IMG/VR virus record: IMGVR_UViG_2693429706_000001
Length of the DNA: 18,039 bases
Source of the DNA: a virus
Taxonomy: Duplodnaviria > Heunggongvirae > Uroviricota > Caudoviricetes
Direction: 5' to 3' (one strand)
Within the stretch, counting starts at the first letter, position 1. Every line of letters begins with the position of its first letter. The position numbers and the translations under genes are program-made. Below the pieces are notes generated by a model. The model was not told where the DNA came from and ran no database searches. It saw only the letters and a program-made list of their open reading frames with translations. Positions 13,997-18,039 of the stretch are shown here, one piece after another.

Positions 13997-14524
13997 CTAG
14001 AGACTCTCTCCTTCCTCATCAGGAATTAATTCAGCAGCACAAGCCTCGTAGGATTTTTCCTGAAGAGTGTATCGCAGGTCATCAATGGCCTGCTGTACAA
14101 CGCCAACGGCCTGAGGAGTCAGGGCGCAATCGCGTTCAAGAACATCCGGAATTGTCTCCAGAACCTGGACGACAGCCTTTCTCATGGACGAATAGACGAT
14201 GACTACTTCATCAACGGGGATGAGTTTTCGCTGCTCCTTTTCCAGCTTGATCCTTTCATTTTCCGACTGGTACCAGTCCTTTCTCTCTTTCGGCTCCATA
14301 CGGGATGGATCATGAACAGAGTCTGCTGCCTCATGCTTCACACTAAACAGGGCAGGCCCGACATGCTGCAGGGCGTAAACGGGGTTCCCCCTGACAGTCG
14401 CAGCCACAGGAGTGTTGGCCGCGAGGAGCCGTTTTTTTACTGTGTCCCAGTGAAGCCCAAAGGCCTCGGCGATTTTAAAAACACTCCAGTAATAAGCATC
14501 ACCGATCCCGCTCACATTTGACAT
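13997..14524 (-). CDS. terminase small subunit
   Basis: About 175-aa ORF ending 9 nt before terL, so terS by position; not the lambda Nu1 sequence type. Start set at the second ATG (MSNVSGIG..., 14524) with GGAG 6 nt upstream. Confidence 0.7.
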   Translation of the reverse strand: MSNVSGIGDAYYWSVFKIAEAFGLHWDTVKKRLLAANTPVAATVRGNPVYALQHVGPALFSVKHEAADSVHDPSRMEPKERKDWYQSENERIKLEKEQRKLIPVDEVVIVYSSMRKAVVQVLETIPDVLERDCALTPQAVGVVQQAIDDLRYTLQEKSYEACAAELIPDEEGESL

Positions 14525-14811
14525 AAGCAACTCCATCTGGCAGGTGAAAATCAGGTTTATTTATATATTTCAATTAATTGCAAACTAGTCTAATGACAGG
14601 GAGAAAAAAATATTGTACAGCTGAAAAGAGAAATAACTTTTAATTATCAATAAATTACCAAACATGCTGCCGCCGCCATGGAAATGCAAAAACTAGCCTT
14701 TTTCCGCGACGCTCCCGCCCCGTGGCAGGGACCCCCACTGGGAGGACCCGACAGCCTGACAACCGTGACGAGCATCTGAAACAGAGCTTTACATAATGGC
14801 ATGGGGATAAT

Positions 14812-15003
14812 TCAGAAGGACATCACAGCATGCCCACACAAATTAGTGTGAGTGTCCTGTTTCTTACTACGCGCAGGACTGACGAGCATGAGGGGAAAAT
14901 ACGAGAACCGAAATGCCTTATCTTCAGAAATGCAGCCGGCATCCGAACTGGACGATATTGTAAATTCACCTAAATACGAGGCATTGCTGTAGTTGAATTG
15001 CAT
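14812..15003 (-). CDS. hypothetical 63-aa ORF (weak)
   Basis: ATG-initiated ORF with no recognisable Shine-Dalgarno and a low-complexity product; listed only because it lies in the cargo region. Confidence 0.2.
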   Translation of the reverse strand: MQFNYSNASYLGEFTISSSSDAGCISEDKAFRFSYFPLMLVSPARSKKQDTHTNLCGHAVMSF

Positions 15004-15086
15004 TGCTGTATTAGCCTGACAGTGACAGAATACGATATTGACTCTGTCACTTGTGAAATGGTCAGAATGGTTAGCAGTTATGGTGA

Positions 15087-15293
15087 TCAGTCAACCACCA
15101 GGGAATAATCCTTCGTATTCTTATCGTGCTTTACTAACGCGGCCTCAATTGCCCTGAATGCTTCCAGAGACACTTGATGTTCTATACATGCAATTACAAC
15201 ATCCGGGTAACCCATCGAAATGGTGCTATTAAGCATAGTTTTTACACGAACCTGCTCCTGGGAGGGGGCATCAGTGTATTGATCTTTATGCAT
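15087..15293 (-). CDS. hypothetical small protein (68 aa), uncharacterised moron
   Basis: ATG at 15293 preceded by GGAG with a 7-nt spacer; product [68 protein letters not shown]. Size and position upstream of terS recall the YbcW/YnfO-type small proteins of DLP12/Qin, but I cannot confirm this from memory. Confidence 0.45.
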
Positions 15294-15500
15294 TTTGTCG
15301 CTCCATGCGTTTGCTCTTCACTTACGGCTAAAAATATAACGTCAAATCACTCAGCATGAAAGAGTTAAAGATTCAGCGCGTTTCCCTTACATAATCTGTC
15401 GTTTGTATTCTCTTCAGGCATACCGGAAAGACTAGGTATTGTCACACAACCAATACCATCGACAATCGAGATTTATACCTATTCGGTAATGTTTAAATAT

Positions 15501-15523
15501 AACAAAACCCCGTAAAAACGAGG
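15501..15523 (-). terminator. possible intrinsic terminator downstream of the gns-like gene
   Basis: Minus-strand CCTCG-TTTTTA-CGGGG (5-bp stem with one G-U pair) followed by TTTTGTT, about 60 nt after the gns-like stop. Confidence 0.3.
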
Positions 15524-15586
15524 TTTATGGGTAATTTGTATTGTTGAATAGCATCTGATGAGAAATTGATGCTAATACTAAACAGA

Positions 15587-15760
15587 CTAGATTAAATCAA
15601 TCTTGATATCATAGCTTTCAAGACCAGTCATTTTTTCCCGTGCAGTAAACTGGATACTGGTAACTTCTTTCCCGGTCTTTTTCTTAAGCTCAATGATTTT
15701 TTTTGTTATATATTCAGAAATATCTGCTTCTGTTTTTGTTTTTAACTCTTCAATGTTCAT
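15587..15760 (-). CDS. GnsA/GnsB-family small protein (57 aa)
   Basis: MNIEELKTKTEADISEYITKKIIELKKKTGKEVTSIQFTAREKMTGLESYDIKIDLI is collinear with E. coli GnsA/GnsB (MNIEEL...TGKEV...FTAREKMTGLESYD.KI); start at the second ATG (15760), 4-5 nt after AAGAGGA. Confidence 0.85.
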   Translation of the reverse strand: MNIEELKTKTEADISEYITKKIIELKKKTGKEVTSIQFTAREKMTGLESYDIKIDLI

Positions 15761-15932
15761 CATTTCCTCTTTTAGTCTGTTATGACTTTCCTGGTACACA
15801 GTAGTGTCAATTATATGGAGCAAACGTATAAAAGATAAGATGAAACATCGCAATAATCAACATACGACGGTCTAAATTTCACACAAACAGATAAAGATGA
15901 TTATCATTTATTATCAATGCATTAGAATCAAA

Positions 15933-16124
15933 TCAATTCAAGAGTCTCATTGCTGCTTCCAGAATTTCTTCTGAAGTTACATGTCGATCCGCTGCTACAT
16001 AAATGACTTTATGATCTCCGGTCAGAGATGGAAACCCTGCAGCCATTACAGTGAGGTGTGTTGTTTCGCCATTTGGATATTCACGCATGATGGTGTTAAC
16101 TCCGGTCATCACTGGCACTACCAT
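15933..16124 (-). CDS. hypothetical small protein (63 aa) in the position occupied by ynfN in Qin
   Basis: ATG-initiated ORF MVVPVMTGVNTIMREYPNGETTHLTVMAAGFPSLTGDHKVIYVAADRHVTSEEILEAAMRLLN between the csp and gns-like genes; no family recognised by eye. Confidence 0.5.
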   Translation of the reverse strand: MVVPVMTGVNTIMREYPNGETTHLTVMAAGFPSLTGDHKVIYVAADRHVTSEEILEAAMRLLN

Positions 16125-16208
16125 TGCTGGTTCAGAGTTAAAAAAAACTATTATTTTTTTTCATAATGTTACCGTAATATGTGAGTATCCATCGACTAGA
16201 CACTAAGC

Positions 16209-16228
16209 AAAAAAGCTCCCGAAGGAGC
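16209..16228 (-). terminator. intrinsic terminator ending the csp transcription unit
   Basis: Minus-strand GCTCC-TTCG-GGAGC (UUCG tetraloop) followed by TTTTTT, immediately after the stop of the zinc-ribbon mini-ORF and about 210 nt after the csp stop. Confidence 0.7.
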
Positions 16229-16236
16229 CTTCATTT

Positions 16237-16452
16237 TCACTTTCTTAAATCTAACGATAGACGGCTAACATTTAAGTATTGTGAAATATTATCAAATGTA
16301 ATCATCATTGATTTACAAAAGATACATTTTGCCCCGAAAGGATTCCTGTCAGAAACATCAAAAGATGATGTTCTATACTGAGAACCATGGCAACACGGGC
16401 ATCTAAAGTGAATATGGTTTGTAATATTTTCTACCTCAAAGTGCCACAACAT
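16237..16452 (-). CDS. candidate zinc-ribbon small protein (71 aa; paired CPCC and CIFC motifs)
   Basis: ORF in a different frame whose ATG (16452) lies inside the last codons of csp (17-nt overlap); product [50 protein letters not shown].... Directly followed by a strong terminator. Position matches the small proteins reported next to cold-shock genes (YmcF/YnfQ type), but identity is not confirmed. Confidence 0.35.
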
Positions 16453-16648
16453 GAACAGCCGCGGGGCCTTTAGGTCCGTTCTCAATACCAAATTCGACTT
16501 CCTGATTCTCAGTTAACGTTTTGAAATCGTTGCTCTGAATAGCTGAGAAATGGACAAACACATCTTTGCTACCATCTTTCGGCGTGATGAAACCAAAACC
16601 TTTTTCAGGGTTAAACCATTTCACTAAACCAGTCATTTTGTTAGACAT
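16436..16648 (-). CDS. cold-shock protein, CspA family (CspI/CspB-like)
   Basis: [70 protein letters not shown] has the RNP1 motif (KGFGFI) and RNP2 motif (VFVHF) of the cold-shock domain; AAGG Shine-Dalgarno upstream of a tandem ATG ATG. Confidence 0.93.
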
Positions 16649-16850
16649 CATTATTACCTTTTGAAGAAGTTAGCCCTTGGGCAGAATGGTCCGAAAAAAA
16701 ATATCAGAGAGAAAAACCAACAAGGAAATCTCAAGAGGTACAAATAATAAAATTATAACAATGACTGCTTCAGATAATTTTGTAACAAACCAGAACACCA
16801 TTAACGCATGATTAACCAACCATAGCAAGGATTACTTTTGTAAAGAAAAA
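16649..16850 (-). promoter_or_regulatory. putative csp promoter and long AT-rich 5' leader
   Basis: About 360 nt of AT-rich non-coding sequence separates the Rz stop from the csp start. CspA-family genes characteristically have long regulatory 5' UTRs, but I did not locate exact promoter or cold-box motifs. Confidence 0.3.
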
Positions 16851-17011
16851 CACACGAATGAAACAATAGCTTTATTTATTAATAAAACGTGTCATTCTGT
16901 CTAATGACCTTTTATCTTACCCTTAAGATTTCAAGGATTTTGACTCATGGAAGAGTCCTTTTTATTTAAATTTCACATTCAGCGCTAAAAATAATCCGAT
17001 TTAATATTAAT

Positions 17012-18039
<1,028 letters not shown>

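Follow-up and report, generated by a model that had tools for sequence, protein, structure and literature searches.

Why would a prophage carry a cold-shock gene between its lysis and packaging genes, and from what signals would it be expressed there? The question is raised by the 18,039-nt stretch of IMG/VR virus record IMGVR_UViG_2693429706_000001 (Caudoviricetes), referred to here as the window, whose numbering we use throughout. The open reading frame (ORF) list gives the order cspI, ynfQ, ynfN and gnsB on the minus strand of 15587-16648, a segment bounded exactly by the stop codon of gnsB and the start codon of cspI. An earlier reading of the same DNA, hereafter the original prediction, had proposed a cargo of host-physiology genes related to two clusters of Escherichia coli K-12. 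We conclude that the region is very probably the known cspI-ynfQ-(ynfR)-ynfN-gnsB moron cassette of a Qin-type lambdoid prophage, lying between the lysis genes and cos/terminase. The cassette is already known: the annotations of E. coli K-12 and of RefSeq include it, and it has been partly characterized by experiment.

Identity and spread of the cassette

All four ORFs that the original prediction had named, a CspA-family gene, a zinc-ribbon mini-ORF, a small ORF and a GnsA/B-family gene, were confirmed at its coordinates (Table 1). Protein comparison with K-12, in line with the check that it had proposed, gave identities of 100% for CspI, 95% for YnfQ, 94% for YnfN (over the 51-amino-acid core) and 93% for GnsB, and the K-12 RefSeq annotation agrees exactly with the Qin order that it had given, ynfR lying in between. 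The four-gene reading was thus sound for the genes themselves, but it overlooked the ynfR remnant, the cspA-type leader and promoter (extending to ~16828) and the 5' frameshift of ynfN, all of which are described below.

CspI consists of a single cold-shock domain with both RNA-binding motifs (RNP1 KGFGF, RNP2 VFVHF) and matches CspA in the PDB (2l15, E=2.8e-29), and GnsB matches the GnsA structures 4xo1/4xo2 with E about 1e-19. YnfQ scores 112 bits against PF23641, for which the cut-off is 27, and has a CxCC...CxxC pattern in which C9, C11, C12, C34 and C37 are invariant. A PDB sequence search with YnfQ gave chance-level matches only and no relative, and its single-sequence AlphaFold model was unusable (predicted local distance difference test score, pLDDT, 46), so a zinc-ribbon fold is suggested by the Cys pattern alone. 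YnfN belongs to phrog_3425 (76 amino acids) and phrog_4911, the core matching with E=8e-46, and had no Pfam family in the profile search. Its PDB sequence search likewise returned chance-level matches only, and the 76-amino-acid protein has a confidently predicted fold for which no structural match was found. YnfN was found in Escherichia and Citrobacter only.

The genes also travel together. In a linkage scan limited to one genome per species, which yielded 15 loci from Escherichia, Shigella and Citrobacter, the order csp, ymcF-like gene, ynfN or ymcE, gns was kept in all 15 independent loci. The ratio of nonsynonymous to synonymous substitution rates (dN/dS), calculated for the genes of 15587-16648 against their Citrobacter orthologues, was 0.03-0.06 for csp, 0.09-0.20 for ynfQ, 0.10-0.18 for ynfN and 0.06-0.09 for gns (0.06-0.18 for gnsB). 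Because all four are under purifying selection (dN/dS 0.03-0.2), none of them is a chance ORF.

The segment 15300-17100 is 99.9% identical in DNA to many E. coli chromosomes, where it lies in Qin-like prophages and where the Prokaryotic Genome Annotation Pipeline (PGAP) names the genes cspI, ynfQ/ymcF, ynfN and gnsB. Similar DNA occurs in 2154 of 5426 complete genomes, nearly always as one copy per genome. The cassette is also present, at 93-99% identity, in seven deposited phage genomes, where it sits at the right genome end directly after S-R-Rz; these include the temperate phages Tritos, mEp460, 2H10 and HannyBb, all viable, and PhiR63_1. One contig (JAGZPX010000007.1) of a 'Veillonella parvula' metagenome-assembled genome also bears a Qin cassette of the K-12 type, together with Rz and terminase genes that resemble those of E. 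coli; the contig is almost certainly a binning contaminant.

Compared with the K-12 Qin prophage (b1552, b4724, b4749, b1551 and b1550 for cspI, ynfQ, ynfR, ynfN and gnsB), the window shares the genes, their order, strand and spacing, the promoter and leader and both terminators, at ~95% DNA identity. In K-12, the cassette follows rzpQ, and ydfO and ynfO separate gnsB from the packaging gene nohA. In the window, by contrast, the cassette is followed by a YbcW-like ORF, an intact terminase and full head and tail genes instead of ydfO/ynfO/nohA, and a 34-nt insertion follows the gnsB stop. The flanks, Rz and endolysin upstream and the YbcW-like ORF and then the small terminase downstream, bear out the predicted location between lysis and packaging genes. 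In Tritos, gnsB and ybcW are separated by an additional gene that runs on the opposite strand, ybcV (DUF1398), which this prophage lacks.

The chromosomal cluster cspG-ymcF-ymcE-gnsA, which is not in a prophage, had been proposed as a paralogous copy. This held for three genes, the identities being 79% for CspI and CspG, 68% for YnfQ and YmcF and 65% for GnsB and GnsA, but not for the middle one: YmcE gives no BLASTP alignment to YnfN, and the cspG cluster simply lacks the ynfN segment. The arrangement also differs there, ymcE overlapping both of its neighbours whereas ynfN is free-standing.

Table 1. Features of the cassette and its flanks, in window coordinates.
Feature	Position	Strand	Details
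cspI, cold-shock protein CspI, 70 amino acids	16436-16648	minus	PF00313 E=1.7e-31
ynfQ, YmcF-like Cys-rich small protein, 62 amino acids	16237-16425	minus	PF23641 E=1.5e-32
ynfR remnant, 12 codons (MKAPSGAFLLSV*)	16196-16234	minus	21 codons in K-12; TAT to TAG
ynfN	15933-16164	minus	conserved core 15933-16088 (51 amino acids, as in K-12 annotation); longest ORF 63 amino acids from 16124
gnsB, GnsA/GnsB family protein, 57 amino acids	15587-15760	minus	Shine-Dalgarno sequence AGAGGA; PF08178 E=2.1e-33, profile 1-54/54
cspI promoter (predicted)	16800-16828	minus	-35 TTGCTA 16828-16823, 17-nt spacer, TGc-extended -10 GTTAAT 16805-16800
cspI 5' untranslated leader, cspA-type thermoregulator (predicted extent)	16649-16793	minus	GCCCAAGGGC hairpin 16682-16673, Shine-Dalgarno sequence AAGG
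Intrinsic terminator after ynfQ (GGCUCCUUCGGGAGC + U6)	16209-16229	minus	9-bp hairpin, -12.5 kcal/mol
Candidate gnsB promoters	15810-15860	minus	TTGATT-17-TATCTT 15860-15832 (Citrobacter too); TTATCT-17-TATAAT 15838-15810 (E. coli only)
Intrinsic terminator after gnsB (AAACCUCGUUUUUACGGGGUUU + U-rich tail)	15503-15526	minus	9-bp hairpin, -11 kcal/mol
Endolysin	17506-18039	minus	PF00959
Rz-type spanin (rzpQ)	17012-17509	minus	PF10721 (DUF2514) E=1.9e-38; K-12 annotation rzpQ/rzoQ
Rz1-like lipoprotein ORF, embedded in Rz	17062-17358 (frame)	minus	
YbcW-like ORF, 68 amino acids	15087-15293	minus	phrog_657 E=4.6e-48; Tritos homologue annotated YbcW
Small terminase subunit (DUF1441)	13997-14536	minus	PF07278 E=5e-43; phrog_141 E=1.3e-63

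Promoter, leader, terminators and expression in the lysogen

Morons such as bor and lom of lambda are units of promoter, gene and terminator inside late operons, and the cassette appears to be built in the same way. In an alignment of the regions upstream of cspI, cspG and their Citrobacter orthologues, the promoter core CATGCGTTAAT is invariant and TTGCTA nearly so. A consensus promoter scan found 6 promoters against 8.5 expected in shuffled sequence; since it did not exceed that expectation, our promoter calls depend on cross-species conservation. With a start ~7 nt after the -10 element, near 16793, the leader would be 145 nt long, equal to the published value; PMC6719143, citing Wang 1999, describes cspI as a cold-inducible csp gene with a 5' untranslated region of 145 nt and a cold box. 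A candidate transcription start near 16793 thus fits the K-12 gene. The Rfam cspA thermoregulator RF01766 matches 16806-16390 (-) over its full model (1-428) with 109.8 bits (gathering score 78, E=1e-27), and a permissive Rfam scan of 14400-17200 returned this leader only. The cspG cluster shares the cspA-type leader, the promoter core and the coupling of an ATT start to the csp stop that is described below.

The 360 nt between Rz and cspI are non-coding. They include a hairpin with a T-run that resembles a terminator, at 16942-16957 (+), between Rz and the cspI promoter; this hairpin is directed along the plus strand only, and no plus-strand gene ends there. The terminator scan found no minus-strand terminator between Rz and the cspI promoter, so late transcription should also traverse the cassette.

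The original prediction had given the genes two intrinsic terminators and Shine-Dalgarno sequences of their own. The terminators stand: the hairpin after ynfQ is conserved in Citrobacter with compensatory changes, and the one after gnsB is identical in K-12. The Shine-Dalgarno sequences of cspI, ynfQ and gnsB stand as well, but the ancestral start of ynfN lacks a convincing ribosome-binding site. For gnsB, candidate promoters were obtained by consensus scan and alignment, and a promoter of its own is probable because, in the Tritos lysogen discussed next, gnsB has more reads than ynfN upstream of it.

Expression has been recorded for a close relative. In the LF82/Tritos lysogen grown in LB (PMC9928086, S1/S4), normalized counts are 955 for cspI, 274 for the 174-nt gnsB and 51 for a 156-nt gene that corresponds to ynfN by length and spacing, and the flanking Tritos genes have counts of 8.0 (Rz), 6.1 (endolysin) and 13.7 (small terminase). 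Relative to the neighbouring Rz, cspI is ~120-fold and gnsB ~34-fold higher, in a cassette that is 93% identical to the one in the window. Some care is needed with the names in that paper: the 'YnfN' of its Table 1 (LF82_0907, 1610202-1610375, 174 nt) is gnsB according to the coordinates, the length and the paper's own S4 table, and the 156-nt 'cold-shock protein' is ynfN, the labels being off by one gene (Tritos locus L020, 1446-1946). In another study, AZT co-induced cspI, ynfQ and ynfN ~6-fold, with similar dependence on LexA and SspA (PMC11228462).

Together, the conserved promoter and leader, the two terminators and the LF82/Tritos RNA-seq data support the proposal that the lysogen would express these genes independently of the late operon. 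A unit with its own conserved promoter and leader and two hairpin/U-run terminators inside a phage operon also supports the description of the genes as morons. Like the lambda bor and lom morons, the cassette is an autonomous promoter-terminator unit between Rz and cos that would be expressed from the repressed prophage, as in Tritos; unlike them, it consists of other genes, lies on the late-operon strand and has predicted temperature control by an RNA leader.

Drawing on family knowledge and on the literature, we infer the following course of events around the gene identities, order, selection, promoter and leader, and terminators documented here. In the lysogen, the cspA-like promoter at ~16828-16800 would give an mRNA with the 145-nt leader, which, as in cspA/B/G, would be unstable at 37 C and allow little translation there, and would be stabilized and refolded after cold shock. 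CspI, an RNA chaperone, would be translated from this mRNA, and YnfQ would be made from its AUU codon through coupling to the cspI stop. A leaky ynfQ terminator would pass some transcripts on to ynfR and ynfN, gnsB would additionally be transcribed from its own promoter, with transcripts ending at the second terminator, and abundant GnsB would make the membrane richer in unsaturated fatty acids. In the lytic cycle, the whole cassette would be read by Q-modified polymerase within the late transcript.

Variant genes and the surroundings of the cassette

The start codon of ynfQ is ATT, 10 nt past the cspI stop, and its Shine-Dalgarno sequence (GAGG/AAGG) overlaps that stop (16423-16438). The ATT start, the overlap and the 10-nt spacer are kept at 20 of 20 ynfQ/ymcF loci, which come from Escherichia, Shigella and Citrobacter. 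Going upstream from ATT in K-12 and C. murliniae, one reaches an in-frame stop after 6-7 codons without passing a canonical start, so ATT is the only conserved ynfQ start. Neither cspG/cspI nor ymcF is mentioned in the main text of Weaver et al. 2019 (bioRxiv 511675).

The next gene, ynfR, is shorter here than in K-12, and PGAP flags the same ORF as 'too short' in CFSAN018748 and S171-1. The ynfR ORF overlaps the ynfQ terminator hairpin, and YnfR, detected as YnfR-SPA, is strongly cold-induced in K-12 (PMC6001520). Cold induction of a product whose ORF crosses the terminator implies read-through of the hairpin, and the ynfQ terminator is therefore probably leaky.

In ynfN, the difference lies at the 5' end (16148-16164, minus strand, ATGAAAAAAAAT), which has an A8 run (16154-16161) here against A7 in most E. 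coli and in all Citrobacter. This +1 slip, directly after the ancestral ATG (16164), puts that start and the initial 13 codons out of frame. The conserved form of the protein, present in Citrobacter and E. coli, has 75-76 amino acids (MKKxIVFFNxEPA...), and in-frame ynfN has an exact DNA match in 436 of the 572 matched E. coli genomes, the A8 version occurring in 1-2 of the 572 complete genomes. The window thus holds an N-terminally truncated allele and not the full-length form. K-12 YnfN is annotated with 51 amino acids because of a different, independent slip, T7 for T8, in the T-run next to the A-run. The A8 run may reflect real decay or switching driven by the homopolymer, or it may be a sequencing error, the sequence being a draft scaffold (N10 at 1309-1318). 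Repeated loss of the YnfN N-terminus by slippage in the A7 and T8 runs could, though we consider this doubtful, amount to a crude on/off switch.

Downstream of the cassette, ~550 nt between the YbcW-like ORF and the small terminase (14537-15086) contain no supported gene; a 63-aa ORF in this interval (14812-15003) had no family match in Pfam and PHROG profile searches. The cos site is likely to lie in 14537-15086. Beyond the small terminase are the large terminase, portal, protease-capsid fusion and tail genes. At the other end of the window, the 10 N join two contigs, and the prophage begins at 1319, inside minor tail gene L. Positions 1-1308 hold the chromosomal gene actS, the tRNA-Gly(CCC) gene glyU (835-908) and one end of IS1. 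The junction between tRNA-Gly/IS1 and the prophage was considered as an integration site and rejected, as it is the scaffold join.

Host cargo, phage aid and the toxin name

Several points weigh against the moron reading set out above. The promoter and the transcription start are assigned by conservation and by analogy with K-12, and the expression evidence comes from other strains (K-12, LF82) and not from this one. The leakiness of the ynfQ terminator is deduced indirectly. Part of the cassette may be decaying, as ynfN is frameshifted and ynfR truncated. Moreover, the lipid phenotype of GnsB comes from overexpression only: in bioRxiv 10.1101/2024.03.27.586906, overexpressed GnsA or GnsB is described as increasing unsaturated fatty acids and suppressing fabA6 and secG-null, and gnsA and gnsB plasmids, citing Sugai 2001, as raising 16:1/18:1 fatty acids and rescuing cold-sensitive growth. 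A benefit of the Qin cassette to its host is so far a supposition.

One could instead suppose that the cassette serves the phage, with CspI and GnsB from the late transcript keeping late expression, lysis and packaging efficient at low temperature and with expression in the lysogen being incidental. The CspI family has transcription antiterminators as well as RNA chaperones among its members, the late operon encloses the cassette, which shares the strand of the lysis and packaging genes and has nothing before it to terminate transcription arriving from Rz, and viable phages have kept it. We nevertheless regard this account as rather unlikely, as the cassette comes with a conserved promoter and leader of cspA type and with terminators of its own, is transcribed in the Tritos lysogen ~100-fold above the adjacent lysis genes, and has a chromosomal paralogue, cspG-ymcF-gnsA, outside any prophage. 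Service to the host and service to the phage are not mutually exclusive. It is far less probable still, to the point that we give it almost no credence, that CspI is the cold-shock-domain effector of an anti-phage system, for instance of retron Se72 or of the type V cold-shock-domain (CSD) kind. Weak matches to NCBIfam retron_eff_Se72 (49.9 bits) and PADLOC CSD_V (E=3e-15) would point that way, but the former is below the curated cut-off of 82 and is far exceeded by the matches to CspG, CspA and CspE. The ORF list and the Rfam scans revealed no reverse transcriptase or msr/msd RNA nearby, CspI is the K-12 protein without a single substitution, and PADLOC and NCBIfam assigned none of the cassette genes to a defence system.

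The names now attached to gnsB raise a different possibility, that it is the toxin of a toxin-antitoxin (TA), or addiction, module, with ynfN as its antitoxin in the way proposed for YmcE and GnsA. The Pfam name of PF08178 is 'GnsA/GnsB toxin', PGAP labels the gene 'addiction module toxin', PMC8484670, citing Wei 2015, gives ymcE-gnsA as a type II TA pair, and ynfN precedes gnsB in every Qin-type locus. We consider this very improbable for the copy in the window. A tblastn search found no YmcE homologue in the 18,039 nt, YnfN is unrelated to YmcE, ynfN and gnsB are separated by a gap of 172 nt with no overlap, and PADLOC gave no hits in support of a TA system. The N-terminal part of ynfN has been frameshifted independently in K-12 (T7) and here (A8), with gnsB intact in both, and the ymcE frame is split by a frameshift in E. 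whittamii (locus L019, 2782-3008) and in Escherichia sp. E1V33 (locus L018, 2785-3008) with ymcF and gnsA intact. Finally, gnsB reads are 5-fold higher than ynfN reads in the healthy Tritos lysogen, and the multicopy gnsA and gnsB plasmids mentioned above rescue growth and do not kill.

Within the moron reading, which we prefer, one further arrangement can be imagined for the ynfQ hairpin. Members of the CspA family are known antiterminators, and the hairpin might be a cold-responsive attenuator, with CspI from the same mRNA promoting read-through to ynfR and ynfN and with the strictly conserved AUU start of ynfQ/ymcF providing a second control that is sensitive to initiation factors. We consider this doubtful; if it were true, an RNA-chaperone module would be linked to the downstream genes ynfR and ynfN through an attenuator.

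Beyond correct annotation the locus matters little, being a moron of textbook type, with work on its csp and gns members going back to 1999-2001. For annotation, the widespread name "GnsA/GnsB addiction module toxin" has poor support in the case of the Qin-type copy, a gene without an antitoxin partner, and the 51-amino-acid YnfN of K-12 is a truncated allele of a conserved 76-amino-acid protein.

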